Assembly (NCBI GenBank): GCA_008632985.1
Contig: QPGO01000054.1
Span: 1 to 64,000 of the forward strand
Source of the DNA: Psammoneis japonica
Lineage: Eukaryota
Direction of reading: 5' to 3'
Length of the DNA: 64,000 nucleotides
Shown here: positions 5,721 to 30,126 of the stretch, piece by piece
How positions within the stretch are numbered: position 1 is the first letter of the stretch
Layout of the letters: every line of letters begins with the position of its first letter
Made by a program: the position numbers and the translations under genes
The notes under the pieces: model-generated
Database searches by the model: none
Told to the model about the DNA's origin: nothing
The model's input: the letters and a program-made list of their open reading frames with translations, nothing else

Positions 5721-7238
5721 TGAAGCTTTTCGAAAAGTTCGAGCCATGAAATCATGAGCATTGATTTTAAATGGCACGTTTTGTGCTTCACGCACAGGAG
5801 CCTCGGGACATCCTTTGAAGCCGTGCAAGCCCGCCTTGATGTGCTGCAGCCCCACTGGAGTAGAACTCACCACACAGCGGACGCCATCTTTCACGAGAGC
5901 AGCAATCGGCAGCTGTTCTTTAACTGAATCGGAGTCACAGGATGGCATCTGTTTTCCAACTGAATCGTTGCTCTAAAGTGAGATCAATGGCCAGCATGCG
6001 TGCTGGGTGCAAAAATGGGAACGTTTGCAAGAGTTTTGCGTGGAAGGACTCACGATGATAAAATGCTACACAGAAAATGGTCTCTGACGGCAGGTCCAGT
6101 TTACGAAAAGGATTCATGCTTTTCAACAAACCAAGCAACAACAACGAGCACAGCTTTCCATCTCAGTTGCTTGTCCTTGATCCGCATGGCAACTTGAGCT
6201 GCGCTTTCACTCCGATTTAAACGCCACAACAGAACACAGATCTGCAGAGCATTTCAAGCAGTTTGGAAGAAAGAGAGCCCGTGAAGCAAGGTGGCAAACC
6301 ATGAGAGGGAGATCTCATTCAGGAAGCCTTGCCAGCCAAATCCATTTCTTGCCGTCAAGCATGATGATCTCATCACTCTTGCAAAAGACACTGCAACTGT
6401 CAATGGCACCAGAACAAAAGAAAATGGCGAGTGTCTCTCGCAAGATCTTTTGCTTCATTGAAACCAACCACAATTTTTTTTTGTGAAAGCACTTGGCAGC
6501 CTCAAGTTGGAGCAGTCCTTTGACATTGAACCTCAATTCCATGGATGGACGGTTGTCTTGTTGTTCTCCCGAACCGTTGCTGGTTCATGTCACGACAACA
6601 AGAAGCCACCCACACAAAAATGCTGATGATTCTTCCGCCTCAGTGTCATCACATTGATTTTAACTAAGATGGAAGGGTCACAGAGTTTACTTTCCATGCA
6701 GCCGACCAAGCCCAAGGAACAACTGAGGGGCTTGTGGTGAAGCGATTGCCTTTTTGTTGTGGAGTTGGCAAACACTGCCACCGTTTCCTGAGGGCAGACA
6801 ATGCAGAAGAGTCTTGGGTGCCATCTTGCTTCCTTGATTGGTTGTTTTCTGCAAAATGCATGTCTCGCAAAGCAAGAACCAGTTGTGGCAGAAAAAGAAG
6901 CTTGAGCTTGAAATGATCAATCCTTGCATTCTGACTTGTGTCGGAGGATGCATTGAAGTCAATGCTGCACATCCTGGGCCATCAGTTTGGCGGGGTTGGC
7001 AGATGCTTTTGCAGCATGAGGCGGGGTGGACTGGTGGACCACGACGACTTTTGNCTCAGGGTTTCGAACCCCTGGCCTCCTGCCCAATGGTTGCGATGAA
7101 CCACTCCGCTGTGAATTCACAACGCAGCATGCATGCAGACAAAAGGTTGTTTTTGTCATGCCCTTTGTGACATTTGAAGGCTGCAACATGTCGCTGTGAT
7201 GCATTGACTCTCACCAGCAGCTGCACATTGCAGGGCGG

Positions 7239-7775
7239 TCGTGGCGGCAGGTGTTCGTTGAACTCCAACACAGCACACACGGTGGAACAGCACGTTCTGG
7301 CAATGATTGAGGTGTGGCAAGCCAGGATGGTTGCTCAACGACAAGTCATTGCCACCAGATGACACTCATGCACAGCGCATGTGCCACAAGCCCAATGATC
7401 CACATGCCCCCATCCATGTTGATCAAATTACGGTCTGAATGGTTTGGCCTCTTGTCTGACTGCAAGAGGCCCGGGCTCTGCTGAGAGCACCCATGTCGTC
7501 CCTTGCACGACAGCGTTGTTGCCCTCTCTGTCACGTTCGTTGTTTGTTCTCACAAAGTTGGGCCATCGTGGCGGCAAGTGTGTGTTGAACTCCAAAACCA
7601 GCACACACGGTGGAACAGCTTGCACTGGCGCATGTGCCACAAGCCCAATGATCCACGTGCCCCTGCCCTGTGCAGCAAGATCCATGTGTTGAGCAAATTA
7701 CGGTCTGAATGGTTTGGCCTTGCATCTCACTGCAAGAGGCCCGGGCTCTGCCAAGCGCCCATGTCATCCCTTGGT
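7239..7775. repeat. Imperfect tandem duplication within the degenerate block
   Basis: GTGGCGGCA..GTTGAACTCC, GCGCATGTGCCACAAGCCCAATGATCCAC and CAAATTACGGTCTGAATGGTTTGGCCT each occur twice (~7240-7505 and ~7568-7773). Confidence 0.8.
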
Positions 7776-10397
7776 TGCAAAGGTTGAACTCCCCAGAGAT
7801 CGCTCAGTGACTCCCATCTGCCACTTGGCACATTGCTTTGTCTCTTGCCTTTGTCTCTCGTGCAAGCAGGGTCCCATCAAACTGACTGCACCTGATGCTT
7901 TTCGAAGAGGTGGGTCACGTGCTGGGATGCGCTCTGCTGCTGGCGCAGAAGAAGACCTTGTTCATGACGCGTGCACATGTGAGTGTCACTTGGCTGCCGC
8001 AACTCTCTTCTTTGTAAGTCAAGCTCCGTCTCTTTCCAGCTTGTGTCTTTCCTTGATGATGGCAGTGTGTTTTCTGCCAAGCAGTGGGCACATGTGTGTT
8101 GTTTTGACGCAAAGTGCTCAAAACTAGTTGCAAATCGTGTGGTCAAAGACAGCAAGAGGCAACCCTCGATCAAAATCTTTGTTCCATCACATTGGCATGA
8201 GCCGCCAACTGCCACGGTCCAAAATTAAACTTGTTGTTCTTCCTGAACACAAAACTCAAGATTGGAGTCCTCATCTTTGCCCTCTCTTTTGGGCACAGTG
8301 TGGCTGCTCAAACCATGCTGTGCTTTTGGCACAACTTGCTGTGAAAACTGGTGCAAGATCCAGTTTCAAACAATGGATGACATGCATGTGGCAGCACTGG
8401 TGGTCTCATGCTGACACTGCATGAGATCATGCAGGAAAAAGTCGGTGACTTTCATGTCTGTCATGGACAGGAAGTGAGTGATTTTCTTGCTGGCAAACAA
8501 GGTGAGCCAGAGATTCATGCTGGTGCCAGTTGTTGTGGAGATGGCTGCCAAATTGCCCCAAACATCAAGCACCCATGGAAAAGCATGCAAACGATCTGGG
8601 GCACATGAAGCAACAACTCATGAATCTGAGGAAGGATCTCCAAACTGAGCTTGCTCCATCGTTTCTTGCCAGCTCTGCACAAGATCATTGCTTTGCAGAT
8701 CTGAGTTGGCCAATGATGACTGCGGTTGCATCAAGCACAGAAAGATGCCATCCGCATGGCAGTTGTCATGATGATCCACCCAAGCAGCAGAAAGAGGAGC
8801 CATGACAATGTCTGCCATGTCATCATCGGAAGCAACTGGCGGGGATTGGCAGGCTCTTGGAGGACCAGCCAAGGTTTCTTTCCATGCAGAAAATCTTGTT
8901 GTGGACTGGCACTCTGCTCCATCATCCCAAAGAACAGTCCTGTTGTCCCCCGTTTGCACACATGACTGAGCAAGCCTTGATGGCACCAACTGAATCAAAG
9001 GGCACCAGCAACTGTCCATTGTTGTCCTTTGGTTTTTCAAGGAAACAGAGCTGGCATCTCCAGGGACTTGTCAAGAACTTTCTCATCATGCCTGCACTGT
9101 TGTGCAGCTCAAATGCAGCATTGACTGTGATGCTCCTCCAGGCAAAGGCACTGCACACTGGCGTCCCTTGGTTGCAAGAGTTGCTGTCAATCTGGGTGAA
9201 AAAAACACGGTCACTCTTGTGGACTCTGTCATGTTGTTCACCCCCAAGGCATTGTGCACACACACAGCAGAGCAAACATTGCCACCAAGATTGTTCCTGG
9301 TCAGGGTGCCCCTCAAAGCATTGAAAAACCGATTCAAAAACTTGACAATCTCATGGAAGAAGATGTGGGTTGCCACCAGGTGCATCAGGGGTGTCCATTT
9401 GCATCTGCTGCATCATGCATCATTTTTTGTTGGCACCACACCATCATGTGCAAAACCTTTGTTGCCTTCTCTGGAGAGAGTTTGGAGACAGGTGTCATCA
9501 CCTTGAGCAGGATCAGCACTGGGTGACAGATCTGTGCCTCAGATTGTTTGCTTTTTCAGGTCTGAGTTGGATCTCTTGCAGTGTCCACATCCTTGTGTTG
9601 AGAGGCCCTCCAAATCAAGTCTCAATGACACCTGCTGCAGCTCTTCATTTTCTGTCACATTGACTTGAGCAAATCTCTCAATGTGATGCCAGCAAGCTCT
9701 GCATTGGCATTGGTGTGTGTCCACCCCCAATCTCAGCACTTGGCAGTTGGACAGGTGGGAATGGACCAAGTCAAAACATGCACAACAAGAAAGGGTCATG
9801 AGCCATTGGCATCGCCAAAAGATGGTTGTCTCTGATGTTGAGCTGCAAACGTGATTGATTTTAGCTGCAGGGGAGTTGTGCAGTGCAAATGGACATTGCA
9901 TTTTGACATGCCCAACCTGTTTGTGTGCTTTTCTTCCTTCACCTGGCCATGTGTGGTTGTGCCTTGCAAGAGATTGCCAGCAAGCAGCATTGTTTTGCAA
10001 GTTCAATCTGCACATGCAGAAGCTGCGCTTGCTGTTCACTGGTCCAATGCCATCACTGCACTGGTTGGATGGAGCTGTGTCATTGGAGCAGCAGTTCAAA
10101 CTGCTCACTCTGCAGCTGCAGCTTCTGGGGCCAATCGTGGTGCCAAACCAAACCACAGCAAGCCCTGGAACCACTGCAAGACCACAATTTGACAGCTGTG
10201 TCTTTCTGGTCTTTGCGCACATTCCATCCATTGCAACTCTTTCCAATCGTGGCTTGCACCCTGCAGCAATTGAGTCACAAGTTGAGGCACATTGCTGTTT
10301 GCACCATGTGTCAAAACCAAAGCCCCCCAGAAAACCAAACCAACATGTCAACCTCTTCATGACAATGGCAGAAAAAGATCCCCCATGAAAAAGACAC

Positions 10398-11930
10398 ATC
10401 CTCAACCTCCGCAAGACCCAAATTCTCACTGCCAAATTGCTGGAAGCAGCCCCATTCCCACTCTTCCTCCCTCTCAAGCTGACCCTCTCTGTGCCACCCT
10501 CTCATGCCTTAACGCTGAAAATGATTCATCCTGCAGCTCCAAACTCACCTCTGGTGTGTCTGCTTCCTTGGTCAACCCCTTGGTTCACAAACTTTTGCTG
10601 GCTCCTTCTTCTCTGCCACCGCTTCCACCCTCTCCAACAAGGTTGACATGCTCCTCTCTTGCCTTCATGACAAGCAAACTCAAGCTCAACTTTTCAAGCA
10701 TTTCTTCACTCCTTCCTCTGTCCATCCACTTGGCACCAACTTTTGCCACAGCTTTGATCCCAACAACCCACCCAATCCCTTCCTCTGGCCCTCCTCCTTT
10801 CAAGCTTTCTTCTTGCTGCTGCTCACTGATTTCTCCACTCTGTGCCACCTCCCATGCTGCTCCTCTCCCCATTCACCACTCCCTTGCCATTGCCCTCCTT
10901 CCTGCTTTGCTTGGGTGCTTTGGTCTTCATGATCCATCAGCTGCTGCCACCCCTTTGTTTCTGATCTCACTCCTCCTCCACCCCCTCTGCTTTGCATCTT
11001 GCAGCATCCAGCTGCCGTCAGGTGCTGCCGCCACCCTTCCTTGCTGCTTTGAGCTCTCCCTGTCTGCTTGGAACAACCCCCCCGCTTAACCTTGCATCTT
11101 TGCATGATCTTCCATTGCTGTTCCCCTGCTCTTGCTTCTGCCCCTGCCCTTTCTGCCTCCTCCCTGGCTGCCCTTGTCAAGTCGGCCACTCTTCCTGGCC
11201 TGGCCTGGCCTGCCATCAACATCATGAGCACCAGCAACAAATCATTGCTTCTGCTCTTGCCAATGCTCCCTCTGACATGCAAGTCTCTCTGCCTTTGCTG
11301 CTGTCCCTGCTCACCAGCTCACCACTTCATTCTCTCTCTCTCTTGCCACTCCAAGAGCTCTCATCTCACTTCTGATGCCTGTGTTGTTGCCACCCAGTGA
11401 AAACCCAATTCTTCCTTCCTCCCTTGCTGGTGTGCCTTGTCCCTGTGGCTGTGTTGCTTTGCTCAACAATGACAGCATCTTCCTTCTTCCTTTCTCTGTC
11501 AATTACCTCTTGGCAGCCTTGGATTCTTTGCCCATCACATCCTTTTTTGCTCTGTGCATTCATCTGCTCACTCTCAACCCAAGCCTCCCTGGTCCTCTCC
11601 TTCTGATCTTTGCCGCTCTGATGCTTCTTGCTCTGCTTTCCTCTGTGCCATCATCTCCCTCTGCTCTCCTCCCATCTGCTGATTTTGTGTGGAATCACCT
11701 GTCCACTGAACGCTTTGGCACTGCATTCCGCACCACTTCTCCTTCTCAGTGGGCCATTCAAACCCTTGGTCACAGCATTGTCCTTCCCCTGCCTTGTCCA
11801 GCCCTTCTGCCAAGCACCCCACGTCCTGCACTTGCTGCCCATTCTTGTCTGCCGTCACTGCAGCTGTCTCCGTGCCTCTTCTGCTGTCCCCTTTTGCTTC
11901 ACACAGGCTCTTTAACTCTGCACTTAGTTT
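10398..11930 (+). mobile_element. 5'-truncated, decayed non-LTR retrotransposon, CRE-like (RT C-terminus, Zn-knuckle and restriction-like endonuclease region)
   Basis: Joined across frameshifts: ILNLRKTQILT, SGVCFLGQPLGSQTFA, LHDKQTQAQLFKH, LPALLGCFGLHDP, LLPFSVNYL/GSLGFFAHHILF and PSQWAIQTLGHSI. Confidence 0.6.
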
Positions 11931-12246
11931 AAAAACGTGCCAAATGAAACTGCACACAAAACACAAACAAGAGCAATGTCAAGCATCAGCCACACACCCA
12001 GCACCCGCACCCGTCGCCATCTAACCATGAACTTTGGCACCGAATTCCTTTCCCTCCCCAAGGACAAGAGGCAGCTCTTGCTGGAGATGACCAAGTTTCT
12101 TGCAGAGTGGAGTAACAACCCGGTGCTGAAACACTCAACACAACGCATTGATGCCACACATGATCACTTTCGTCACACCCAAGAGTGAGCTTCTCGCATG
12201 ACACTGCCTGCTGCTTGTTTCTGTCCTGCTGATTCATTCTAACATC

Positions 12247-12516
12247 TTGACATTTGCTGTTCTCCATGGAAGGGTGAGCGAAGATAAAGGAGAGAAGCTC
12301 AGTCAGGACTTGACGGAAGCCAACGAAGAGGTGGCCGACACGGAGGCTGAAATCGAGGCTCAACAACGCGAGTTGTCTCGCGGCCAAGCGAAGCATGACT
12401 CGTTGCGCGACAAGCTTGCTGGCCGCAAAGATCGCGCTGCTTCAGCCGCTGGAGGGTGCGAGGATTGGAAGCAAGAACACATCAAGTTGACTCGCGAGCG
12501 GGAGGCGTGCTTGTGA
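12247..12516 (+). pseudogene. Coiled-coil coding fragment of unknown origin
   Basis: EKLSQDLTEANEEVADTEAEIEAQQRELSR heptad-like run; TpA-poor but CpG-rich. Confidence 0.3.
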
Positions 12517-14726: not shown

Positions 14727-15973
14727 TCATCTTGCAACGTACCGTACCATGTTGGGTCCAGCACCAACCATGGCATGTCCTCCAGGCGGTACGACTATCT
14801 CAAGCTGATTGGCTTTCAATGTCTTTGAAAAGTACCCCAACACACAGTAAGCAGTGTCGGGCGGTTCAAATCCATCAAAGGCCGTACCCAACCCCAATCC
14901 ACCGCCAAAACCGCCACATCCCAAGTTTGGAAACACAAGCCAGTCGTCACAATTGAGTGGAGGAAGCATGACTTGTCGGCAAACCCTGTCAAGGCCGTCG
15001 TCATTATCACTACTAGTCGTTGTCGTCTTGAGTGGCATGGGGCTAAACTCGTGTCCAGGTAATCCAGTGGTTTGTAGCGATCCGTAGCAACCGTCATCAA
15101 TGTAGTAGTGCATGGTGCATGGTGTATCCAGTGTTGCAGTCCTGGCTCGTCTCGTTGTTGTCGGTACCACAAAAACACTCCTACTCTTGGAACCGAAGAT
15201 TCGAGTACACAAGGCACCCGCATGAGCCACCAACAAGTGACTCGCATCAATCGTGAGGGAAATACGAGGTAGTTCCAAAAGCTTGTGGAAGAATTCTTGT
15301 ACTGACCGAGTCAAGGCATTGCCCCCACTGGGCGACAAACCAGTCACATCGATACGAAACTCTAGTTGTTGTTTGTCCGCATCATCACTGCAGATTGGTA
15401 GTAGAGCCGATATCAATCCATTCAAGTCGTCCTTGTAGCATTCCAAATGTAGACTAAGCCCGTGCAATGTCGCATGGAGAGTGTGAGCAGCCGTTCGGAT
15501 CGATTGAATCAAGTCCTCCCATTGTCGCTCGTCTCGTGGCAGCCGCAAAACGTATCCGCGTCCACCACAATCACTCCGTGTCGTTGTTGTCGTTGTAGTG
15601 TAGCCAGTGTTATGTGTGTTCAGTAGTGTATTGTGGATTCGTTTGACTTCCTCGGGTCCATCGACTGCAAAGCTATTTGTGAATTTTGCAATCCGTTTCA
15701 AATATCCATCCGGTTTTCTCGTGGCACCCATGTTGTCCACCACCAATCCATCGAGGCCTTGGGGACGAAATGGCGATGGAGACTGTGGAAGACGCGAGAG
15801 TCTGTAGTAGGCGTATGATTCTGCTTCTGTTGTTGTTCCTGACGCCAAGTGGCCCAGCTTTGAGTAATATTTTCTTTTGCAGCTACACGACGAGTGGGTG
15901 AGGTCGATAAAGAATTGTCGGTAGGTCCTGCTCTTGTCGAGACGACGGCGCTGCTGGCTTTTGGCGACGCCAT
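14727..15973 (-). CDS. Ornithine decarboxylase-like / antizyme-inhibitor-like protein; 5' frame disjunction, possibly a pseudogene
   Basis: HLLVAHAGALCTRI, HYYIDDGCYGSL, DGLDRVC, DWLVFPNLG and TAFDGF resemble the ODC C-terminal domain. The GPTC motif and a YAVK-type PLP lysine are not seen. The ATG at 15973 is one nt out of frame with the main ORF. Confidence 0.65.
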
Positions 15974-18134
15974 GGTTTTATGTTCAATGTTGCGCGTGTG
16001 TGTGAGTGGCGTGCGGTATGTGGCGTGTCGGAGGGCGAGGAACAGACGGGCACGTACAAACAGTCCATCCATCCATCCTGAGCGAGAAGATTTGGTGCGG
16101 ACAACACATCATGTTGTAGACCTCTCTCTACTAGCTAGCTAGAGAGTAGTAGAGTAGATGATTCTACGGTGGCTGTCGCTCATTGCAAAAATAGAGAGTC
16201 CGGCTCAAGCTCTCTCGAACGAATGATCAAAACTGGCGAAGCCAATTTTCCGTCAAATGTGACAAACAATGGCAATGCAAGTGGCTGAGGCAGAGCTGCT
16301 TGATCGGATGTTTGTCCAACTATTTCAGTGGTGGCAGGCACAACAACGTTGGCCGAAGTCAGGAGAGCAAGAATGATGATCCCACAAGACACTCACTCCA
16401 TTTTGGAGTTTGGGTGTGTTTTTGGTGTTTTGGCAATGGCCGAAAGGGTGCGCTGGATGCCGCCGCGACTCCTCTCTCTCTCTCTCTCTCTCAACACACT
16501 GTTGTGTCGACACTGACCACCAATGGCAACAACAACAAGAAGAAAAGCATGACACGATCGTCTTGGGGGGGGGGGGATCGATTTCGAAAACAATTGCACT
16601 GCACAGAGTGACCAGGAATGTCAAAAGCAGACCTGCTTTAATGGGATTGATTCGCTCGATTACAAGACCCACAATCACATCAATGAGCATAAAACGCAAA
16701 GCCTCTCACGTGACTGCAGCAACACGAAGTGGGCGGTCCTTCAAAAATTTTCTCTGTCAAAGAGGCATTCCCCCCTTTGCCTGCAGCAAAGGCGCCGCAT
16801 TACGTCCAAGTGGGCGCACCACAGTTCTCGGCCCGTTCATTTTCTACGTGGCCTGGCACAACCGAAATCTGTGTAGATTCAGTGCATTTTGCCCTGTGGA
16901 ACGACTTTTGGGACTGTTTTCTGGCTCGCGGCTCAAAACAACATGCAAAATAACACGGACAATGGCGTTTCGCCGATTTCAAAAATGCGGTTGTTTCTGA
17001 GGCACTTTGTGGTGTGCTCTCAACGGAACATCTTACGTCACAGCACAAGGCATGTGATGAGCTCGAGAGCACACAGGTTCACATGGGCAGCTGATGGTGA
17101 AAATTCTCACTGAAGGTTCGCGTTGACAGCATCGCTTCTGTTGCATCACGACCGACCTCATGTGTCACCATTCGTGCTGTGTGTTTCGTTGAGGCTTTGC
17201 ACATTGATGCCCGTTTGACTTGCATGTGTTGTCTCTTTCTACATTGTTCTTTTGTTCTGCAGTGTCTCTGTGTCGCAAGGCATCCCAGAAACACTTTTCC
17301 TTGTCAAGAATGTCAACTCTGCAATGCAATGGCCACGGCAATTCCAAAACGAGGCAAAGTCACAGACACAGCATCAGGCCGACTTCATGGTGAATGTGGT
17401 GACTTGGGGCTGTGGTGTCAAAAGCTGGACAAGCTCTCAAGAGCTCAGATCCGTCACAGTGCATTTTTGACAATGGTTCTCCCCGCCTCCACTTGGTGAT
17501 GCGGAGTTTGATTCGGCAGACCAGTGCATCATGGCTGTTCTGAAGGTTCAGATTGCTTCTTTTGGCTGCAAGGCAGTTTACAAGCTAGAAATGTGTGGCT
17601 CACTTGCCCAATTTGTTGGCCAATGCAACAAACTTAGAGGGTGACAGCCGGGACAGATGATCATTTTGTCAAGTCTAAAAAGCAGCTAAAGATTGCACGC
17701 CAACAAGAAGAACCAGCTTTAAAATTTATCATGGGGGCATGGACTTTATTTTGTTGGTGTTTCATGGCATCTCCATTGTTGTTCTAGAGTGAACATCAAC
17801 TGGTGTTGTCACCGCCAACGTGCGAGTTCACCTTGACAATCGGTTGCACTGCATTCTGAGATTTTGGACCAAAAACAACTTTTGTTTGCATTGCTCTGTC
17901 ATGAGAGAAAGCTCATTGGCTTCCCCTGGCCCTTTTGGAGCAATGGGTGAGTGAAAGAGGAGCTGCAGAAAGATGCAGACGATGCCATTTTGATGTGTTG
18001 TTGTCAGGTGGTGTCATCGTGAGGTCGCATGATGGAGTGCCATGCTTTCTGTTTTGTGCTGCGTCTGTGCAGGAATGCACGTGATTGGCTCTCTGGTGGT
18101 TTCTACGTAAAAAGTGCACCAGGCGATCTCTGGA

Positions 18135-18576
18135 ACCAGCGATGCGTGTGTCTCTCAAGGATCCATTGAGTGGCTCTGCAGCGGCACTCACCTCGTCCAA
18201 AGACACTGACATGCGAACAACCTTGGGTGCCGATTCGTGTTCCGCCAAACTTGTCTTCGAAAGCCGGGCTGGTGAATCAGTCAAGCTTGCTCTCAAAGCT
18301 TCACTTCCGTTGCTTGAGGTTGTGTCGGGAGGGCTTTGAGAAGCAGCAGCAGATTGCAGTGGCGCACTTGCTGGTGCAATCGGTGAGAGTGAGGTGCTGT
18401 GACTGTCCACACCAATGGAGTCCTTCATTCCCTCTGTCTCTTTGGGCAAATGTTTTGCAACCCAAGTCAAAGTCACTGGAGTCCTTGGCAGTGCACTGCC
18501 AATGTTTCCTTTGCTGTGTTGAGTCGCAGACTTGTTTGGGGTTGTCTCCAGGCAAGAAAATTGAAGAGACAGACTT
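18135..18576 (-). pseudogene. 442-bp hypermutated duplicate of part of the Ska3-like gene (source 31003-31444)
   Basis: Ungapped alignment at a constant offset of 12,868 bp; same peptide KHLPKETEGMKDSIGVDSHSTSLSPIAP...NGSLRDTRI. Confidence 0.97.
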
Positions 18577-18602
18577 TGTCAACTTTGGCAAGTTTGGTGA
18601 GC

Positions 18603-19159
18603 GGGTCTGCGGGAAATCGCAATTTTTGCCACCTGCTTGTCAAAATTGATGGAATCGCGCCTGCCAGTGCAAAATCTGTCTGACAAGACAAATTTGTTGC
18701 CAACATCACCTCGCAGAAAAGACATTTTCCAGACACAACTTTTGATGCAAAAAACTGTGTGAGACAAAGAAAACTGTGTAAAGACCCGGATGTGTGCAAT
18801 TGAAAATGTCCAAAAATTTGTGTTGTGTGGGAATGTGCCAGGCTTCTACACACAAAGAACCCGCATGTGCATTTTTCAAAATGTGTGACACAACTTTCAA
18901 AATGCACATCCGGGTTGCACTTTTTTGTGTGGATTTTGTGCTGGAAGTCTTGCAGGAATTCTAAAAACACCAGGATGTGCATTTTCGAAACTGTGGCACA
19001 ACTTTGATTTGTGTCAAAAGTTGTGTCAAAGTTGTGTCAAAAATGTGCAAGCTCGTCATGCAGAAAAAGCACGTGTGGCTGCGCTGTTGGCATTGCAAAT
19101 GGTCAAAGCTCACAGAGATTCTCTGTTTTTTGCTTAAAAACACGATTTCCTGCAGACCC
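18603..19159. mobile_element. MITE / non-autonomous DNA transposon inserted in the 9-bp satellite
   Basis: Terminal inverted repeats GGGTCTGCGGGAAATCGCAATTTTT and (reverse complement) GGGTCTGCAGGAAATCGTGTTTTT. Internal CCCGGATGTGCATTTT-like subrepeats. Satellite units lie on both sides. Confidence 0.75.
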
Positions 19160-20447
19160 AGTTTGTCAACTTTGGCAACTTTGGCAACTTTGGCAAGTTT
19201 GTCAACTTTGGTGACTTTGGCAAGTTTGGTGAGTTTGGCAACTTTGGCAAGTTTGTCAACTTTGGTGACTTTGGCAAGTTTGGCAGTTTGACAACTTTGG
19301 CGAGTTTGTCAACTTTGGCAACTTTTGCAAGTTTGGTGACTTTGACAAGTTTGTCAACTTTGGCAAGTTTGGCAAGTTTGGTGACTTGGGCAAGTTTGGC
19401 AACTTTGGTGACTTTGGCAAGTTTGGTGACTTTGGCAAGATTGGCATTGGCAAGTTTGGCGAGTTTGGCAACTTTGGCAAGTTTGGTGACTTTGGCGAGT
19501 TTGGCAACTTTGGCAAGTTTGGCGACTTTGACGAGTTTGGCAACTTTGGCAAGTTTGTCAACTTTGGCAACTTTGGCGAGTTTGGCAACTTTGGCAAGTT
19601 TGGTGACTTTGGCAACTTTGGCGAGTTTGGCAACTTTGGCAACTTTGGCAACTTTGGCAACTTTGTGGCGAGTTTGGCAACTTTGGCGACTTTGGCGAGT
19701 TTGGCAACTTTGGCAACTTTGGCGAGTTTGTCAACTTTGGCAAGTTTGGTGACTTTGGTGACTTTGGCAACTTTGGCAAGTTTGGCAACTTTGGCAAGTT
19801 TGGTGGCAACTTTTGCAAGTTTGGTGACTTTGGCAAGTTTGTCAACTTTGGCAACTTTGGTGAGTTTGGCGACTTTGGTGACTTTGGCAACTTTGGCAAG
19901 TTTGGTGACTTGGGCAAGTTTGGCAACTTTGGCAACTTTGGTGACTTTGGCAAGTTTGGCGACTTTGGCAAGTTTGGAAACTTTGGCGAGTTTGGCAACT
20001 TTGGCAAGTTTGGTGACTTTGGCGAGTTTGGCAACTTTGGCAAGTTTGGTGACTTTGGCAACTTTGGCAGCTTTGGCAACTTTGGTGACTTTGTCAAGTT
20101 GGGCAACTTTGGTGACTTTGGCGAATTTGGCAACTTTGTCAAGTTTGTCAACTTTGGCAACTTTGGTGAGTTTTGTGAGTTTGTCAACTTTGGCAAGTTT
20201 GGCAAGTTTGCCAACTTTGTCAACTGTGTTGAGTGTGTCAACTTTGTCAACTTTGGTGAGTTTTGTGAGTTTGTCAACTTTGGCGAGTTTGGCAAGTTTG
20301 CCATTTTTTGTCAACTTTGGCAAGTTTGGCGAGTTTGTCTGCTTTGGTGAGTTTGGCAACTTTGGCAAGTTTTCCAACTTTGGCAACTTTGGTGACTTTG
20401 GTGAGTTTGACAACTTTGGTGACTCATTTTGCAAGTTTGGCAAGTTG
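19160..20447. repeat. 9-bp tandem satellite array (units GGCAACTTT, GGTGACTTT, GGCAAGTTT, GGCGAGTTT, GTCAACTTT); a few units also at 18577-18602
   Basis: Directly visible 9-nt periodicity over ~1.3 kb. Confidence 0.97.
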
Positions 20448-20479
20448 AGCAAGGCATGCACAGCCAGCTGCAGTTGATG

Positions 20480-22000
20480 CCAATGAACTGGAAGATCTTC
20501 TGCAGCATTTCCGGGTCATCAACATCATGCATGAGCTGTCCCAAGTGCAGTGGGGTCTGCACAGGGACCAGTGATGACTTGGAGAATGGTTGACAGCACA
20601 CCAGCCATGCAGCAGCTCTTGTCAGAAAGGGTGCTTCTGACAAAGAAGCAGCTGAGAGACATGGACAGAATGAGGCAGGAGGTTGGGATTGGTCGGACGA
20701 GACATGTCATCCGCTGGCCCATTCTTTTCACCAGCCAAATTGCCACTTGGGAATTGATGCCGACACCCCTCAAAGGCAAAGCACAGACCAAATGCACAAA
20801 TGCCATTGTCATTGAGGAGAGCTGGCAGTGCCCAGATTGCATCAACCAGAGCTGACCACATTGTCAACTCGGTTGAGGTGGATCAAATTTTTGGGGGCAC
20901 CATGGGGAAAGAGGGAGGCCACCAGTTCCAGATCCATGCATGTGCTGACAGATTTCATGAAAGTGACTGTGCCTGCAAGCAGGAGGAGGGCAACAACAAA
21001 ACTGAGAGCATTGTCAGAAACCTGTCCTTGGGGCCATGAGAACAAGGTCAAACCTCAGCTTGCCATGGGGCTCCACATCACAAGGAACCAAAGTTGAAAT
21101 TCCCGGCAGCAACTGCCACCACCTGGTTTTCTTGCATCACCAATTCCTTGGCAGTGCAGATCACATGGGACAATGGCCTCAATCTTTTGTCACAAAAGAG
21201 TGTGGAGTGCTTTTGGCACAGCCCAAAAGACAGAAAATGGACGAGCAAAATTCAGGAAACACCGCCGTCTTGAGATGCAGATGATGTGCGAACTGTGCCT
21301 TTCCCCTGGCAATGATGTTTGGGAGATGATGAACCAACTTGTGTGGGAGTTGGCCACAAACCTGCTGCTCATGCCCTTGCCATGGCAGGGTCTGCTTGGC
21401 AACATGGCACCGAACCATCAAATTGCAACAAAGAGCATGCTGAAAAACAAAAAACCAACACCGAAGTGTGTGATCATGCCAAAAGCATGATGCTCCAAAA
21501 TGCCATTCAAGGTTGCCACCTCCAAGAGGAGGCACTCAATCTTGGGCTTCCAATCGTAAAGAACAAAGATGATCTTGTCAAGCTTGTGATCCACAATCCC
21601 AACAGTCAAAGAGCGGGTGTTGCGTGAGCACCCAAGAAGCTTGCAAAGGAAAGACAGGATGAGGTCAAGCTTTTTCAAGCTCAAGGCATTCAGGACTTCA
21701 TCCTGTGGAAAGCTGTGCAACACATGAATGGCAAAGGCACTTGCAGACATGGTGTGTGCCAAGAATTGTGCAACATCAGCTTGCAAGTTGTTGTCCACCT
21801 GATGCTTGTGAATTGGCAAAATCCACAGTCCATCCTGGAGAATTCCAGGGTTCAAGGAATCTGGGAGCACACAAGAAAATGCCTGTGCCCACCTTGGATG
21901 GAGTCAGTTGTGATGGAAACTCAATCCTTGGAAGGAATGGGTGCATGATCTTGACAACATTTGAGACACAAAATGCATGCTGCACAAGCTGCTGATGGCA
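20480..22000 (-). mobile_element. Decayed Ty3/Gypsy-like pol (RT and RNase H remnants); the element probably extends further upstream toward ~24 kb
   Basis: GIVDHKLDKIIFVLYDWKPKIECLL (CVDYRKLN..P.IE.LL-like), SDNALSFVV...DLELVA and LAGEKNGPADDMSR (N..AD.LSR-like), in RT-RNaseH order. Confidence 0.55.
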
Positions 22001-23102
22001 TTGCGACCATCCATCATTCCAATTGTGCAGGTCAGGGGTGTCCCCAAAACTGCAACCAAGTTGAGCCACAGCTGTGCTGGACCAACGCATGCATCCCAGC
22101 CAGGTTTGGGTTGCATTTCATCATGCGGCAAGCTCCAGTGGTGTCATTGTCAATTGGGTGGATCTCCTGAGATGGACAATTGATCCGTGCATTCCAGATC
22201 CAATGCACAACATCAAGCTCCTCCACAGCTTTGGAGCACTCTGGCTTGTGTTCCAGTGACAAAAAGTTGTTGAAGGCCATGGACAAAGGCTTGGGTTGGA
22301 ACGAGCTGTCCAAAACTGGTCAAGGCTGCTTGAACAATTTGTCAATGTCAACCAAGCTCTGAGGTGACAGATGACAGTTCAAAACACATGGTGTCAATTG
22401 TTGGTCAAAAATGAGAACCAAACTCTGCTTGGAGTCCTTGACAAGAGCCTTGCAAGTTTTCTCTGGATCAACACAAATGGGCAGTTTGTTCCTGCAGTTA
22501 AAACAGTCTTGAAAATTTTCTTCTGTGTTTTGCCCATTGCAGCAGGCTGGAACGCCATCTTGGCAGATGCAAGCAATGATCTTGACAGCAACAGGATCAA
22601 CTTTGCCATCAAGATGATGTGACACAATGCGCTCAATGTTCCGATGTGCTCAAGCATGTGGGCCACCAACCCATCGCACCAATGAAGCCATGTCTCTGTC
22701 AAAATGGAGCAATCCTGCCAAGGTCTGACAAACACGTGTCTTGTTGAGGTCTGACTCTTGCTCCCATCCCAAAGGGTGCCCTTGGAGAGAATTAAAGTCA
22801 TCGGGTGTCACACAACATGGATCCTCCCAATTGTTGACCACACACTGCCAGAGTCAAAGGATGGCATCTCTTGGGGAACAGAGTGCAGGAAACCCAACTT
22901 CCAAAGGGGCAACAAGACATGGTAAAAAAAACAGCTTCAGACATGAAGTTTCTGACAAGCATTGTCCTTGCCAAAAGGTTGGTCCGATTGGGACTGAACA
23001 CGAAGTGACAACTGAGTCCTGATGAACTCTTCACACTCAGCTTTCTTGAATGAGTTGCCAATTGTCAGGATGAGCTGAGAGGAAGAGCCTCCAGTCACCA
23101 CA

Positions 23103-23838
23103 GGGGAAAGGACCGGGCAGAACTCCTCAATCTCTTCAGAGGCAACTGGCGGGATGTCAGGCACATTTTTGGCACACCAAACCAAGTGATGCAGACTTGG
23201 AAAATTCTGCACCCTGGGGCAAGGGGGGCACACCTTCATCCACAGGGACACCAATGTGGCCTGGGGACAAAGTGCTGCCAATGGTGAACAGCCAGTGGAT
23301 GTTTCCAAATGAAACAAATGCGCCAGTTTCATCTGAGACAAAACCAACAAGAAGACACACCAGCAGGACCTTTCCCAGGTGCAAAAGAAAGATTTTCCAT
23401 CTTCTCCTCAAAGTTAACCAACTCGGCACACTTTGCTTCAGGGAGAGCACAAAGATGGTGACATGCGGCTTCTTGGGGAAAGGACCGGGCAGAACTCCTC
23501 AATCTCTTCAGAGGCAACTGGCAGGATGTCAGGCACATTTTTGGCACACCAAACCAAGTGATGCAGACTTGGAAAATTCTGCACCCTGGGGGCACACCTT
23601 CATCCACAGGGACACCAATGTGGCCTGGGGACAAAGTGCTGCCAATGGTGAACAGCCAGTGGATGTTTCCAAATGAACAAATGCGCCAGTTTCATCTGAG
23701 ACAAAACCAACAAGAAGACACACCAGCAGGACCTTTCCCAGGTGCAAAAGAAAGATTTTCCATCTTCTCCTCAAAGTCAACCAACTCGGCACACACTTTG
23801 CTTCAGGGAGAGCACAAAGATGGTGACACACGGCTTCT
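23103..23838. repeat. ~370-bp tandem duplication
   Basis: GGGGAAAGGACCGGGCAGAACTCC... starts at 23103 and 23475; the copies are nearly identical. Confidence 0.95.
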
Positions 23839-26010
23839 TGCATCTGGGACGGTTACAATGAAAGCCACAAGTCAAAAAATGAGCACAAAGGCGCTCTTCA
23901 GATGTTGAGTCAGAGTTCTTCTTAGCCACAACTGGGATGTTGTGAGTCTGGTGGGAATCATCAGAGATGACAAGCATGCCCATCTTCTTGATGAGCTCAA
24001 TCTCATCTGCAGACAACAATGACTTGGATTTCTCACTGGGTGAAGCAGTTCCAGTTGTCAACGGCAATTCAGCGAATTGCTTGTTTGAAGAAACATTCAA
24101 GTTGGCTTTTTTGGCAAGCTGATGTGAGACACACTGGCTTCCAAATGGTCTGCAGGGCTTCTTTCTTGCCAAGAGCCCAGATTCTTTTTGCTGGGCAAGA
24201 ACAGAACTTGCTCATCAACTGCTTGTTTGTTGCAAATGACCTTGTTTGTCTGTCTTGCTGTGTTGCACTCTTTCTCTCCTGAAGCTGGGCAGCATTTCAA
24301 TGCTCAGTTTGAGGTGCAAGAGTCAATCCAGTTGTGCCCCATTTCTGCATTTCAAAAGCAATTGCTTGTCAGCACATGCCAGCATGTGGGCAAGTCATGT
24401 TTTTTGGTGAGCCCTGCACAATGTCTTTGTTCTTGTTTGTCTTTGATCCACCTGTGCCTGTGTGCAACTTTCTTTTTTCACATTTTGTGCATTGCTTGGC
24501 ATGTCATTTTGCCTGAGTGAAAGGCAAAGAAAAAGAAAAAGCACCACCTTTTTTCATGCTGCAGCGCCAGCTTGTTGACACCCCAATGTTCCATTTCTTG
24601 CTTGCTTCAATGCCTCACTCGTCCTTGCACAGTGTTTTCCAGCACTGTGCTGTGCCAGCACACAAAAGTCCTCCTGCAGTGTCCTTGTTGCTTTGTGCTC
24701 TGGCATGTCTCTTGTTTTGTTTTGTGCAGCAGAGCATTTTGTTTTTATGGAGCCAAGCAAGTCAGCCTGTTGAGCCATCTGGTGTCATGCAGCCATTTTC
24801 AGTTTTTAAGCTGTTTTGTTTGTGCCCATTCTTGTGGAGATTTGTGGCTCAAATCCTGTCAGTTGGGTCACACACATGATCTTGACAAACAAAAGATGAG
24901 TCAAATCTTTTGAAAGTTTTGAGCTGAGCATGGTGCCTGCTGCCTCTGTGTCCAAAAACAACTCGTGCTTTGGCTTTTGTGACACAAAAGTGCTCTTGTG
25001 AAAAGAAATTGCAGATGTGCTTGTGGCTGCTCAATTGCCAGTCAGGCCAATTTGTCAAAAAGCAGACTGCTGAAGAAACCCAAGAGAACACAAAACAACA
25101 ACAACATGACAAAGCACGGGGAAGTCTGTTTTTTGTTTGTTCTTGCTGGTGCTGGGAGAACTCAATTGTGGCCTGGTGTCAGAGAGGTGGATTTGGAGGT
25201 GAGTGGCCAAGCAGGCAACAAGCAGGTTGTCCAGGCCACAGCATCATTCCCACATGCACGGGGGGGGGGGGGGCGGGGGGACAAAAGAAGTGGTGTTGGC
25301 CCAGCCAATGCCACAGCACCTGCAAACAAGGCACCTCTGCTGCTCCTGCTGACCAGGCTCCTGCAACCCCATCTCTGGCACAGGAGGCCCTCAGCTTCTT
25401 GAGTGTCACATGACAAAATGTTGTTGTTCAACACCCACAAGCTTGCCAAAGCATTGCAGCAGCAGCAGCAGCAGCAGCAAGCCCTTTGTGCATTTGATCC
25501 CTCTGCACAGCTCCCCCCCCCCCCCTGTGTTGATCATGTGGCTTCTGGCAAGAGGTTGTGAGCAGCATGTGAGTTGTCAACCAGTCAAGGTGCATCCTCA
25601 TGAGACATGCCAAAAATGTGCTCTCTCATGCAGTTGAAAGTGCCATCATGGAGGCACTCACCCAGCTGATTTTTGTGCAAAGCATCTGCTCACCTGCCTC
25701 TTTCAGGGTTGTCATGATGATCTCATGTCCGTGGAATTCCCATGCTGCCTCAACCAAAACAATGAAGCCAACTGCATTGCCCAGGTTGACTGCAGTCTTG
25801 TGAACAAACACTGTGCGGCTAACTGCACACAGGCACAGGCAGCACTCCTCTGCACTGGTGTGCCACAAGGCCAAGTGCTCCACAAAGGATGCCAAATGTT
25901 TCCTCCATCATCTCATGTGACACCATCCCTGCACGCAACAAGAGTTTGGGTGTGACCCTCCATGTTCCCGGCAACATTTCTTCAGGGTTTGAGTTGGCAC
26001 TTGTTTTTGC

Positions 26011-26070
26011 CAAAGTTGAGTCTGCCCAGTCCAGACAGACAAAAGTTGAGTCTGCCCAGTCCAGACAGAC
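26011..26070. repeat. 30-bp tandem duplication
   Basis: AAAGTTGAGTCTGCCCAGTCCAGACAGAC occurs twice. Confidence 0.9.
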
Positions 26071-29000
26071 AGATGCTGAGCATGAAAAAATTGCAAGTGA
26101 ATGAACCCCTTCCCCATCATCCAGTGATGAGCTGCAACTCATGGTGCAGAGTGTGATGTGATGCACACCAGCACAGCATTGCACTCAAAGTGGGGTGAGT
26201 GCACAAAAGGTGTTTGAGCTCTCTCATGAGCACATTTGACAGCACAGCACCCACTGCACCCCCCCTGGCTCTGCCAGCATGCACAAGAACAGCCCAGCAG
26301 GTGGCATGAGCCAAATGCAAATTTTCCTGCATCAACTGGGTGAAAAGCCCATGAACTCTTCCTCTGGAGGGGAACACAGAGAGAGAAGCAGCAGATGCAT
26401 TCCAGCCCTGGGCAGGATTGTGTGTGACATTGGGCCCGCAGAATTCTGTGTGCAAGCTCCACAGCAAAAACATCAAGCAATGAACATGTGAGTCATCGCC
26501 AACAGAAAAAGAGGCCATTTTGTGAATGTGTCTCCTCCTCCACACTTCAAGCATGTTGCTTGAAGTTTGCCCTGGGGTTGCATTCTTCAGACATCAAAGA
26601 GTGTGCCCGGCTTGCAACTTGCTCCAGATTTGGGTGGGCCCACATGAAAAAATGTGCCCATTTTTGCATGAAACATGCGGTCTAAACTTGTGGCACCATT
26701 TTTGACAGTTGCAACACAGTGATTTGCATGTGTCATCATGGCAGCACAAATGCACACAAAAATGTCTTGTGCATGCACCCATGCATTCGAAGCTGAGGAT
26801 GGACTGAGTTTTTGATCACCAAATGGTGCCGCAAGATGAGAGCTTGGTTTTCCAATGAGCAATTCATGACTGCATTTGTGTGATTCAAACACACAAAGCA
26901 AATGTTCTCATGCACAAACTGGCCCTTCAATGGACAATTAAAAGTGTGTTTTGTCAACATGCTTTGACCAGATTTGCCCTCAAGAATGGATTCAATGACA
27001 CATGCATTGCTTGCAAAGTGTGAGAAGACACAAGAAGAAATGAATCCCAGCCCACACCCTGACATCAACTTTGGACCCTTTTACAATGATTTGTGGATGT
27101 GAGCAACTGAAACACTTGCACCAGTTGATGACATGGAGGGAACACACACGGCAGTGGAAAAGAATTTGTCTGCAGAAGCAAGCTGCAAATGAAATGAAAC
27201 CAAGTTACAGTTGATAACAGATTGGTCTTTTTTTGCTCTGATTCAGCCTGCAACAAGCATTTTCATCAATGTCGTTGATGCCATGGAGCCACACAAAATG
27301 CTGCTGTCATCATCATGTTGTTCAATTTCCTGCAAGGTTGAAAAAAGTGGGCCATCATGGCCGCTGAAAGCCACGGCCATTTTGGCCATTGCTTGGTTCA
27401 AATTTCACCCAGTCATCTAATTCCCAGTGCATGAACACAACAACAATTGTGTGATGTCATCGATTTTGAACAAAGCATGAAATGTTTGTTTTTTGTGCCA
27501 AAACGGGCATGTGTGCTCCACCCAAGTCTGGAACATGTCCCATTTTTGTGCTCATGGATGGAGAAAATGGAGAGCCTTTGGCTTTGCAAAACAGGGAGCA
27601 CGGGACAATTTTGCAGAAAATCACATGTCAAAATGTGCGTGCATGGCATGCAACAAGATCCAAAAAACTGTTGATGTCACAGCTCAGCAATGCAAGGTCT
27701 TGCCTGGAGAGTTGGAGAGCACATCAGCAGGGACAAGAAGCTGTTGCTCTCATCTCTGCAATCTGCAACATGTTTTTGCAATTGATGGGAGAAAATCAAC
27801 CAAGAACAAAACTTTTGCACCTGTGGTTGGTGCACTCTCCACAGGCCAGCATCAGAGCACACAACACAGTGATTGAGCATGCCTGTCTCACAGTGATTTT
27901 TTGTGCCATTTGTTTTAAAATTTTTGTGCTGTGATTGGAGACTAGTTGCACACATGGTTGCAACATGTCAATTGTGACAGTTTGACAAATTGCTGCTGTG
28001 GGATTTCTGCCCCCCTCCGTCTGCAGGGGAAATTTCAAACCACTGCGAAACATCCACTTCTCTTCCACAGCTGTGAGCTTGCGGACCCTGCATCCCCACA
28101 AAATGTGCAAACCAAAAGCACTCCATTCATCCCTTTTTTGTTGATTGTCAAAGTCAAATGCAAATGAAGCAATGCATGTTTCATGCAAATGCCAATGAGT
28201 TTGCTGATTTGCTGCTTTTGCCATTTGATGTTTTTGCAGCTCTGCAGGTGGAGTCATCAAGGCCGACAGGTGCAGCGACCATTCTGGGCAGTGCTTTTCC
28301 TGCTGTCTCCCTCATCCTTGTCACTCAAGCCATCTCATCTGCATCATCCTCTTTGTCATTGTTTTCCCTGTCCTTCTCATTGCAGCTCAACAGCTCTGTT
28401 GTTGCTTGTGTCTTTGCCACCTTCTGCGCCGGCTTTTTTCATGGTTGTCACTCTTTTCCCTTTGTGTCACTTTGTCTCTTCTTTTCATTGGTGCACCCTG
28501 CATCAAACTGCACCCCTGCTTTGCTTGCCCTGTCTTTTTTCACCTCATCACACAGCTCTTTGAGTCATTCTGTTCCCACATCTCCCAACAATTTCCACTG
28601 TTTTGCAGGGTTTGTGAACATTGGCAACAGTTTTTTTCTCTTCCTCATCTTCATCTTCATCCTTTGCCCAATCTTCTGTTCCTTCCTTGCCTTGCACTCC
28701 CAAACACTCTGGCAGCTCTCTGATGTTGGCAGCCCCAGTGCCTTGCTTGCTGCAGACAGCTCTGCAACCTTCTTGCTGTCTCCCGACTCCACCATCTTTC
28801 TCCACATTGCAGTGCTTTTTTCAGAATTTCAGTGCATTTTTGTAGAGCCAAGCACGCACTTTCTTGTTGCTCCTTTTTTCACTCCCAATGGTCTTCACAG
28901 TCTTGTCCTCCCAAGTTGGCAGGAATCTTTCTTCAATGGGCAAAGCACACACTCTCTTCCTGCTGCTTTTTTTCTGGGGCACTTTGTTCTTGTCCTGGGT

Positions 29001-29677
29001 GTGTCTCTCCGCTGCCCTTGTTTTGTTCTTGGGCAATTCCCTGGATGGCCTCTGCGACAACGCCATTGTCCCCAATCCCTTTTTGGAAAAACACTGGGCT
29101 GCACTTGCAATTCAGCACATTTTTCATTGTCATCTGTGTGACGGTGTTCCTTTTTGCACTGATGGCACTCAGGACATGCCTTTTTGCCCAGTCTTCCCAC
29201 ATCCCTGCCCGCTTTTGCTGGCCAAATTTGCCACCAGCCATGTTCTTCCGCATCAGCCATGGCACTTTTTCATTGCTCAACATGTCTGCCTTTGCAAGGA
29301 ACTTTGCCTTTAGAAACAACTTTTTCCTTGCAACCTCTTCCACTTCTCTCCTCAGTGCCTTGCACCTCCCGCTTCATCCTGTCCGCCCAGTGCTGACAAC
29401 AGCCTTGGGCTTGCCTCATGACTGGAGATGTCCCTTTCTCTTGTTTTTTTGTGGTGTCTTTGGCATGGTCTTCTTGCCATTGATGTGATGATCATGATCA
29501 CCTTGTGTCTTGCAAAGTGTGATGATGGGCGCTCCTTTGCATCCTGCCATTGTCTGACTCCAAACCATTTTTTTCAACTCCACAATGTTGATGTCAAACA
29601 TTGATTCTCAAGCAATGAAGTTTTTGGCTCAAACTTAATGTTCCATGCACCCATTTTCCACTGAATTAAAAAAAGAT

Positions 29678-30118
29678 TGTCAGCTTTGTCGTTTTTGACA
29701 AGTTTGTCAACTTTGATGGGTTTGTAACTTTGGTGACTTTGATGAGTTTGTCAACTTTGTCAACTTTGGCGAGTTTGCCAACTTTGTCAGCTTTGTCAAC
29801 TTTTGGTGACTTTGTCAACTTTAATGAGTTTGCTGACTTTTTTCCATTTTTGGTTGCTTTGTCTTTGTTGAGTTTGTCAACTTTGGCAACTTTGGTGAGT
29901 TTGCCAACTTTGGAGACTTTGTCAACTTTGACAAGTTTGCAACTTTGCAACTTTGGCGACTCTGGCGAGTTTGTCAACTTTGGTGACTTTATCAACTTTG
30001 ACGAGTTTGTCCATGTTGGTGACTTTGTCAACTTTGATGAGCTTGCAACTTTGGCAACTTGGGTGTGTTTGTCAACTTTGGTGAGTTTGCACCAACTTTG
30101 CCGACTTTGTCAACTTTG
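29678..30118. repeat. Second, more diverged array of the same 9-bp satellite
   Basis: GTCAACTTT, GGTGACTTT and GGCGAGTTT units in the same orientation as the first array. Confidence 0.92.
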
Positions 30119-30126
30119 ATGCGCTG

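Follow-up and report, generated by a model that had tools for sequence, protein, structure and literature searches.

Genes and Features of the Locus

The window, i.e., the whole 64-kb stretch of DNA that was analyzed, encodes a kinesin, a myosin, subtilases, and a C2/SMP protein. The best database matches of the kinesin frame (753 codons) share 54–57% identity with it, and every named match among the 120 listed comes from a diatom. The named matches include proteins of Attheya, Cylindrotheca, Chaetoceros, Thalassiosira, Nitzschia, Fistulifera, and Mayamaea. These matches assign the window to a eukaryote, namely a diatom or a very close relative that lacks a near neighbor in the collections searched. 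A conserved diatom gene with an open frame of 696 codons lies at 30844–32934 on the reverse strand. It belongs to no Pfam family, and its function is not assigned by homology. Among its 19 protein matches, the named ones are from Nitzschia inconspicua, Fragilariopsis cylindrus, and Cylindrotheca fusiformis. Residues 347–695 of the gene align with the diatom homologues, and its C-terminal block is common to the Nitzschia, Fragilariopsis, and Cylindrotheca proteins.

Part of this gene is present a second time at 18135–18576 (reverse strand). The fragment corresponds to codons 497–644 and extends into the conserved C-terminal block; its source segment, at 31003–31444 on the reverse strand, lies inside the intact gene. 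In a self-BLAST search, the two are recovered as one ungapped 442-bp match with 91.855% identity. Three units of a 9-bp satellite (18575–18601, forward strand; TTTGTCAAC, TTTGGCAAG, and TTTGGTGAG) directly abut the right end of the fragment. Arrays of 9-bp satellite with the consensus TTTGGCAAC are located at 19162–20419, with about 140 copies, and at 29677–30119. At the junction, GACTT is common to the gene and a satellite variant, which suggests that the fragment was joined to the satellite by microhomology.

Three Domains Depleted of TpA

A dinucleotide profile in 1-kb intervals, together with finer profiles of the 64-kb window, revealed three domains from which TpA is largely missing. Domain 1 (3250–12250) is TpA-free; roughly half of the CpG survives in its left half, and CG rho is 0.09–0.25 in the right half. 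Domain 2 (16250–30200) is TpA-free, CpG-poor, and rich in TG and CA, and it holds the fragment near its left margin. Here, CG rho is 0.36–0.90 at 16250–19000 and 0.1–0.3 in the core. Domain 3 (38250–40500) shows TA rho values of 0.06–0.38 and CG rho values of 0.70–1.10, i.e., its CpG is nearly intact, and it has either advanced least of the three or is targeted less strongly. In total, 20 of the 64 intervals of 1 kb contain at most seven TA, in comparison to about 30–55 in the others.

Per kilobase, the domains (25.2 kb) contain 4.7 TA, 108.5 TG, 103.1 CA, and 22.0 CG, which add up to 238.3, whereas the rest of the window (38.8 kb) contains 39.3 TA, 69.3 TG, 73.6 CA, and 58.9 CG, which add up to 241.1. 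The totals of the pyrimidine-purine steps agree to about 1%. Since this total is conserved, TA and CG have been converted in place to TG and CA. GC content is about equal inside and outside the domains, and ordinary GC profiles would therefore miss the process.

Nowhere in the three domains is CG more strongly depleted than TA. In domains 1 and 2, TA rho is 0–0.24 and CG rho about 0.4–0.9 in the outer zones, and TA rho is 0–0.15 and CG rho 0.09–0.3 in the cores. The margins of the domains are gradients rather than sharp junctions. The fragment sits in the outer zone, and its CpG loss of 39% agrees with the zone's CG rho of about 0.5. It is a small part of a domain-wide phenomenon that goes beyond the before/after pair described in an earlier note on this DNA.

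The 119 TA remaining in the domains and the 1523 TA outside them differ in flanking context (chi-square p = 2e-21). TTAA is 5.4-fold over-represented among the former, ATAT does not occur (0/119), and ATAC/GTAT occurs once (1/119). A flank preference of the mutator was considered as the cause and was not adopted, since new TA arising from the abundant CA and TG, e.g., in the satellite, would produce a similar bias.

Contents of the Domains

What can be recognized in the domains comprises satellites, multi-copy repeats, and host-gene fragments; most of the domain sequence is without recognizable origin. In the TpA-free core of domain 1, a predicted remnant of the C-terminal end of a B12-dependent methionine synthase activation domain lies at 9629–9832 on the forward strand (PF02965, E = 1.3e-6, 28.5 bits against a cut-off of 25). 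It matches MetH chains in the PDB weakly (E = 0.05), and a database search found no full-length relatives of it. In this one weak alignment, the Tyr of the Escherichia coli protein stands opposite His once and opposite Cys once, as would result from TAY changing to CAY or TGY. Remnants of a cNMP-binding kinase gene (3502–4706, forward strand) at the left margin of this domain comprise two cNMP-binding pieces and a protein kinase N-lobe in different frames. One PF00027 match is above the cut-off (E = 1e-8), and the other PF00027 match (E = 5.9e-5) and the PF00069 match (E = 3.7e-5) are below it.

A Pfam scan of 279 domain ORFs of at least 55 amino acids returned no match to virus or transposon families; four further ORFs had been set aside beforehand, one because it contains the N at 7054 and three because they lie within the 9-bp satellite. 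TpA-free DNA contains neither TAA and TAG stops nor Tyr codons; thus, it gives rise to long false ORFs on both strands, many of which are seen in the domains. Likewise, the ancestral frame of the fragment is still open only because TAA and TAG cannot occur without TpA.

Domain 2 also contains a tandem duplication of a 363-bp unit (23103–23840). Its two copies differ at four positions, and all four mismatches fall in pyrimidine-purine steps, namely one CG/CA, one TA/CA, and one TG/CA double.

The Same 442 bp Before and After

The source segment represents the "before" state of the pair. It contains 16 TpA and 23 CpG, and the fragment contains no TpA: eight of the 16 have become TG, eight have become CA, and none has become CG. 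Among the 23 CpG, 14 are retained, five have become CA, and four have become TG. From gene to fragment, the 36 mismatches are composed of 11 T>C, 11 A>G, six C>T, five G>A, and three transversions. Eleven of them lie outside TA and CG sites and comprise six A>G or T>C changes, two C>T or G>A changes, and the three transversions. The numbers that the earlier note had obtained from a manual alignment are all confirmed, namely the complete loss of TpA with its even division between TG and CA, the decay of nine CpG, and about 11 other substitutions.

The loss is specific to its dinucleotide context. TA loss (16/16) far exceeds transitions at A/T sites outside TA (6/191; Fisher p = 2.5e-19), and CG loss (9/23) exceeds transitions at G/C sites outside CG (2/173; p = 4e-8). 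The earlier note had further proposed that TpA mutates faster than CpG at this locus. Indeed, TA loss is higher than CG loss within the pair (16/16 versus 9/23; p = 8.6e-5), in line with the depletion along the domains. The 95% lower bound of TA loss in the fragment is 0.83. When the pair is coded as purines and pyrimidines, its identity rises to 99.3% over 443 bp.

The background divergence of the pair is 3.0% (11 of 364 sites). The pair is thus a rare internal calibration, in which background divergence amounts to 3%, CpG loss to 39%, and TpA loss to 100%, placing TpA first, CpG second, and all other sites last. The mismatches are spread evenly over the three codon positions (13/11/12), and 23 are non-synonymous and 13 synonymous, which indicates unconstrained divergence, as expected for one drifting copy. 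The fragment is therefore read as a truncated copy, now dead, of one part of the conserved diatom gene.

The loss of TpA extends beyond the fragment. Its non-homologous flanks contain nine and three TA per 500 bp, in comparison to 20 and 12 beside the gene. Since the flanks are TpA-poor as well, the fragment shared the fate of its neighborhood and was not stripped alone. The TA density of the source segment (36/kb) is close to that of the rest of the ORF (33/kb).

Direction of Change

The earlier note had taken the gene to be ancestral because of its intact ORF. This polarity is corroborated by a MAFFT alignment with 14 diatom protein homologues, in which seven positions of the conserved C-terminal block distinguish the gene from the fragment. 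Three of these positions are informative, and at each of them the homologues agree with the gene. At the first, the gene has Ile, the fragment Thr, and all 14 homologues Ile or Val; at the second, the gene has Asn, the fragment Ser, and all 14 homologues Asn; at the third, the gene has Leu and the fragment Pro, and the homologues have Leu (seven), Ala (five), or Ser (two), and in no case Pro. The Ile-to-Thr change is ATA to ACA and is itself a TpA loss. The remaining four positions are variable across the family and uninformative. Beyond the end of the homology between the two copies, the gene continues to align with the family, whereas the fragment stops. The gene retains the conserved residues and the fragment is off-family and truncated; thus, the fragment is the derived copy, and the change ran from TpA to TpG and CpA. 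In the collections searched, there was no close outgroup DNA, and the best protein match to the gene is 33–43% identical over part of its length; hence, few sites are polarized directly.

Other Copies and Controls

In a search of public sequencing runs, the stretch was matched by one sample of one study (share 0.42 of 281 words), and no RNA run was among the runs listed. The contigs of one public run, possibly from the assembly's own sample and of a platform that is not on record, were aligned to 15500–33000. They give depth in all 30 bins of this region, with a single-copy depth of about 65–140. The summed depth reaches thousands at 16668–18419, 19004–20171, 26012–26595, and 27180–27763, which indicates that parts of domain 2 are multi-copy repeats in the genome. 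With regard to the presence of the copy in the reads, on which the earlier note had made its reading depend, the contigs give a partial answer: there is depth in all bins, but among the 16 contig pieces listed (with 2328 further pieces) none spans 18135–18576. The sole listed difference inside the fragment is at position 18140, where a single contig reads the gene's letter.

Transitions account for 143 of the 175 places in 15500–33000 where the run contigs read another letter. At 16688/9, 18668/9, and 20782/3, a CA in the window stands opposite a TG in other genomic copies, or the reverse. Such TG-versus-CA doubles would arise if two copies had each resolved the same ancestral TA or CG independently. 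Together with the tandem duplicate of domain 2, whose mismatches all lie in pyrimidine-purine steps, they indicate that the process went on after copying. Among 40 differences listed (of 177), the other genomic copy has TA at none of those that lie in the domain, so that some repeats may have been TpA-free before they spread.

A direct duplicate outside the domains serves as a control. Its copies (about 2331–2606 and 2700–2975, within 2331–2975) differ by nine substitutions in 275 columns (about 3%), which is similar to the background divergence of the 442-bp pair, and both retain TpA and CpG. They contain 12 and 13 TA, with 11 in common, and 19 CG each, with 18 in common. Since this one control duplicate and the gene copy are untouched, location rather than duplication seems to matter. 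A purine/pyrimidine-coded self-search of the window for further pairs of TpA-free and normal sequence yielded only the 442-bp pair and an 87-bp repeat at a domain margin that is too short to use.

A second control comprised 80 metagenomic loci around relatives of the kinesin (424,096 bp), many of them on short, gene-rich contigs. Over 727 intervals of 1 kb, the minimum rho TA was 0.20, and no interval combined low TA with a TG/CA value above 1.5. TpA-free DNA is thus not a general property of such kinesin-locus metagenome contigs.

Proposed Mechanism and Alternatives

As read from this one assembly, these features are probably the product of a regional, strand-symmetric mutator that acts at the DNA level and turns TpA into TpG or CpA, accompanied by slower CpG decay. 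Part of the conserved gene would have been copied, truncated, and joined to the 9-bp satellite where a repeat- and satellite-rich domain of 14 kb has its margin. In the three domains, nearly every TpA has been turned into TpG or CpA, with both strands struck equally and each site once. That none of the 16 sites became CG is in line with a hit that destroys the TpA and thereby removes the 5'-T needed on the other strand. The direction of change, the dinucleotide specificity, the strand symmetry, the regional extent, and the lead of TpA over CpG are evident from the sequence, whereas the chemistry and the mode of targeting are inferred. Diatom transposons are CpG-methylated, and the slower conversion of CpG to TpG and CpA in the same domains would most simply be ordinary deamination of 5-methylcytosine. 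As the most likely chemistry, we adopt enzymatic deamination of the adenine 3' of T, which would generate inosine that is read as G, in silenced chromatin. The process would be guided by the chromatin domain rather than by duplication of a sequence in itself. Since DNA derived from the host is affected as well, the target appears to be set by location or chromatin state and not by foreignness.

The same regional DNA-level process could also act on the thymine of TpA, which would be modified, e.g., to a 5-hydroxymethyluracil-type base, and then mispaired or misrepaired to yield T>C, with no adenine deaminated. TpA is self-complementary, so that A>G on one strand is indistinguishable from T>C on the other; sequence does not separate the adenine route from the thymine route, and the 8:8 split fits both equally well. 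Moreover, 5-hydroxymethyluracil in dinoflagellate DNA occurs preferentially at TpA and TpC, which supports the thymine route. Nevertheless, we regard it as unlikely, as the only experimental precedent, a preprint on the alga Bigelowiella natans (Mettrop et al., bioRxiv 10.64898/2026.01.13.699255, 2026), proposes adenine deamination in its main text, albeit without proof.

An artefact of assembly or base calling would require that a long-read base-caller reads 6mA at TpA as G and 5mC at CpG as T, with TpA really present. It would give strand-dependent TG or CA at TA sites and TG or CA at CG sites in modified domains only, and the platform of the assembly, like that of the matching run, is not on record. 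However, over 24116–24613, 25487–26450, 28129–28966, and 29220–29800 (about 2.9 kb of TpA-free sequence), the run contigs match the window with zero substituted letters at a word depth of about 65–115, although this run may be the assembly's own sample and is then not independent. Such depth of exact 31-letter words is judged unlikely for raw error-prone reads. In addition, the fragment differs from the gene at 11 other sites, transversions among them, and the remnants of genes found in the domains show the truncations and broken frames of real pseudogenes. An artefact is therefore very unlikely.

Hyper-editing at the RNA level, in which an ADAR- or ADAT-like enzyme edits a transcript of the gene or a double-stranded RNA from A to I and the edited RNA returns to the genome as a DNA copy, would account for the sequence context. 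Animal ADARs usually favor U upstream of the edited A, as stated in the preprint (10.64898/2026.01.13.699255), and fungal A-to-I editing is described as preferring U at position −1 (PMC11156358). The earlier note had argued for a DNA-level process and against a single RNA intermediate on account of the even strand split inside one copy, and this argument gains weight from the domains as a whole. TpA loss does not stop at the borders of the fragment and runs on into the non-homologous flanks, the satellites, and the 14 kb around, where TG and CA are about equally frequent (108.5 and 103.1 per kb). In addition, the tandem duplicate kept diverging in place at the same steps, and the fragment has neither a poly-A tail nor an exon-only structure. 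Editing of RNA is thus highly improbable as the source of the pattern.

The domains could also be of foreign origin, e.g., an integrated virus whose genome is free of TpA by its nature or through selection, and the host fragment would have become adapted there prior to integration. The hypermutable regions of B. natans are described as integrated giant-virus and virophage DNA (10.64898/2026.01.13.699255), and most of the domain sequence here has no recognizable origin. However, none of the 279 domain ORFs scanned matches a viral or transposon family, and the recognizable pieces (methionine synthase, cNMP-binding kinase, and the diatom gene) are cellular. The graded margins and a pyrimidine-purine step sum equal to that of host DNA also speak against a foreign origin, and selection would hardly be able to remove 16 of 16 TpA within 3% background divergence. 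We give this possibility very little credence.

Finally, RIP is described as making exactly the changes CA>TA and TG>TA on both strands (PMC2621366), and 16 hits among about 75 TG/CA sites would be a plausible RIP dose, but it is extremely improbable that the fragment is ancestral and that the gene gained TpA by RIP-like C-to-T changes at CpA, since the gene, and not the fragment, has the open 696-codon frame and the residues conserved in 14 homologues, the polarized ATA codon (Ile or Val in 14/14 homologues) is ACA in the fragment, the TA density of the gene is that of the background, the nine differences of CG against TG or CA would require the opposite type of mutation, and the RIP indices of the gene segment are unremarkable (TpA/ApT 0.84; (CpA+TpG)/(ApC+GpT) 1.11), whereas those of the domains (0.09 and 1.84) are the opposite of RIP.

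Comparison with Known Systems

A full-text literature search found no report of TpA loss in diatoms. In the literature searched, a targeted TpA-removing mutator appears in only one preprint of 2026, for one organism and with no known enzyme. Of the 231 mutations that arose in two integrated viral regions during mutation accumulation in B. natans lines, 230 were A>G or T>C; all of these fell on TpA, and both strands were affected (Mettrop et al., bioRxiv 10.64898/2026.01.13.699255, 2026). According to the same preprint, the mutation rate of the hypermutable regions is about 1000-fold above background, and an ADAT2-type deaminase is proposed for the process. The signature is identical to that at the present locus, i.e., A>G and T>C changes that affect TpA only, occur on both strands, and yield TpG and CpA, although it is known from new mutations there and from sequence comparison here. 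When the thresholds given for clusters in the preprint (rho TA ≤ 0.43 and rho TG+CA ≥ 1.52) were applied to our 1-kb profile, 21 of the 64 intervals fell within them, in one run of eight (4001–12000) and one of 13 (17001–30000).

Yet, several differences are present. B. natans is a chlorarachniophyte (Rhizaria), whereas the host here is a diatom or a close relative (Stramenopiles). The window is not from B. natans itself, whose proteins should then have given nearly identical matches. The words "diatom" and "stramenopile" do not occur in the main text of the preprint (10.64898/2026.01.13.699255). Depletion is near total here (4.7 TA/kb), in comparison to a rho TA of 0.45 reported for the giant-virus region of B. 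natans. The recognizable targets here are satellites, multi-copy repeats, and host-gene fragments, whereas those described for B. natans are viral; either the target class differs, or viral and transposon sequences in the domains have decayed too far to be recognized. CpG decays in parallel here, and the main text of the preprint contains no occurrence of "CpG". The different lineage, the near-total depletion, the host-derived and repeat targets, and the parallel, slower CpG decay are thus new in comparison to B. natans. Since the saturated footprint lies in a different major lineage of eukaryotes, the process may be widespread in algae.

Like fungal RIP, the process at this locus would be a dinucleotide-specific, strand-symmetric transition mutagenesis at the DNA level that disables repeats and leaves compositional domains. 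However, RIP makes TpA from CpA, whereas the process here destroys TpA, and RIP mutates both members of a duplicate, whereas the gene copy and the control duplicate are untouched here. RIP itself is described as fungus-specific in abstracts. The decay of methylated CpG resembles the present pattern in that CG has changed to TG and CA in the same domains (9/23 in the pair; 22.0 versus 58.9 CG/kb overall), but it accounts only for the slower half of the pattern.

The natural tRNA substrate of ADAT-type deaminases has U33 before A34. ADAR and ADAT deaminases and TadA-derived adenine base editors likewise yield A-to-G changes and favor a U or T on the 5' side, although they act on RNA in nature, and their activity on DNA is engineered or confined to a few cases cited in the preprint (10.64898/2026.01.13.699255). 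Should the enzyme be an adenine deaminase that acts on DNA, the engineered adenine base editors would have an equivalent in nature. Collectively, these comparisons allow the tentative proposal, which we hold to be possible rather than probable, that diatoms carry a natural DNA editor that is targeted to chromatin domains and erases TpA (A:T to G:C) in silenced repeat domains, host-gene fragments included. Such an editor would be the mirror image of fungal RIP, and it would be either homologous to the process of B. natans, and then an ancient means of genome defence common to distantly related algae, or a product of independent evolution, the process having then arisen twice.

Flank Context of the Residual TpA

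In the three TpA-depleted, TG/CA-rich domains (3250–12250, 16250–30200, and 38250–40500), the flanks of the 119 residual TpA differ strongly from those of the 1523 TpA located elsewhere in the window (chi-square p = 2e-21). The tetranucleotide TTAA is 5.4-fold in excess among the residual sites, the ATAT context is absent from them (0/119), and ATAC/GTAT accounts for a single site (1/119). There are two possible sources of this bias: the mutator, i.e., the proposed regional DNA-level process turning TpA into TpG/CpA, may discriminate between flanks, with a −2 T or a +1 A being protective, or new TA may have emerged from the abundant CA/TG. Domain 1 also contains a single N, at position 7054 in TpA-free sequence.

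Open Frames and the 9-bp Satellite

Stop-to-stop frames of 150–420 codons overlap on both strands all through the domains (4000–30000). Since TAA and TAG are impossible in TpA-free DNA, such long overlapping frames arise on both strands, and over-calling by gene finders is to be expected in this region. A 9-bp satellite (unit TTTGGCAAC; variants TTTGTCAAC, TTTGGTGAC, and TTTGATGAG) occupies 19162–20419 and 29677–30119 and recurs at 18575–18601; one array holds approximately 140 copies, and all six frames of the satellite sequence are open. The satellite also produces a spurious collagen Pfam match.

Local Differences between Copies

Comparison of the gene copy with its derived TpA-free fragment revealed three neighboring mismatches, CAA (31236–31238) versus TTG (18368–18370), which are exact reverse complements. 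This difference could be one 3-bp inversion instead of three separate substitutions. In the contigs of one public sequencing run, several link ~26460–26608 directly to ~27573–27658, indicating that other genomic copies of a multi-copy element (window 26460–27575) lack ~1.0–1.2 kb of the window copy. At 24863–24867, the window reads TTGGG and one contig of this run reads CCAAA, i.e., five adjacent transitions.

Other Features of the Window

Two subtilase (Peptidase_S8) paralogues, at 41959–43110 (−) and 46722–47834 (+), lie in divergent orientation with a DNA identity of ~67%, and the TpA content of both is normal. Further along, a run of long open frames on the plus strand (48450–56466) consists of 42-, 84-, and 252-bp Ser/Pro/Ala-rich repeats and ends in a DUF7467 match; these repeat-built frames may encode a large repetitive protein that would be secreted or located in the cell wall.
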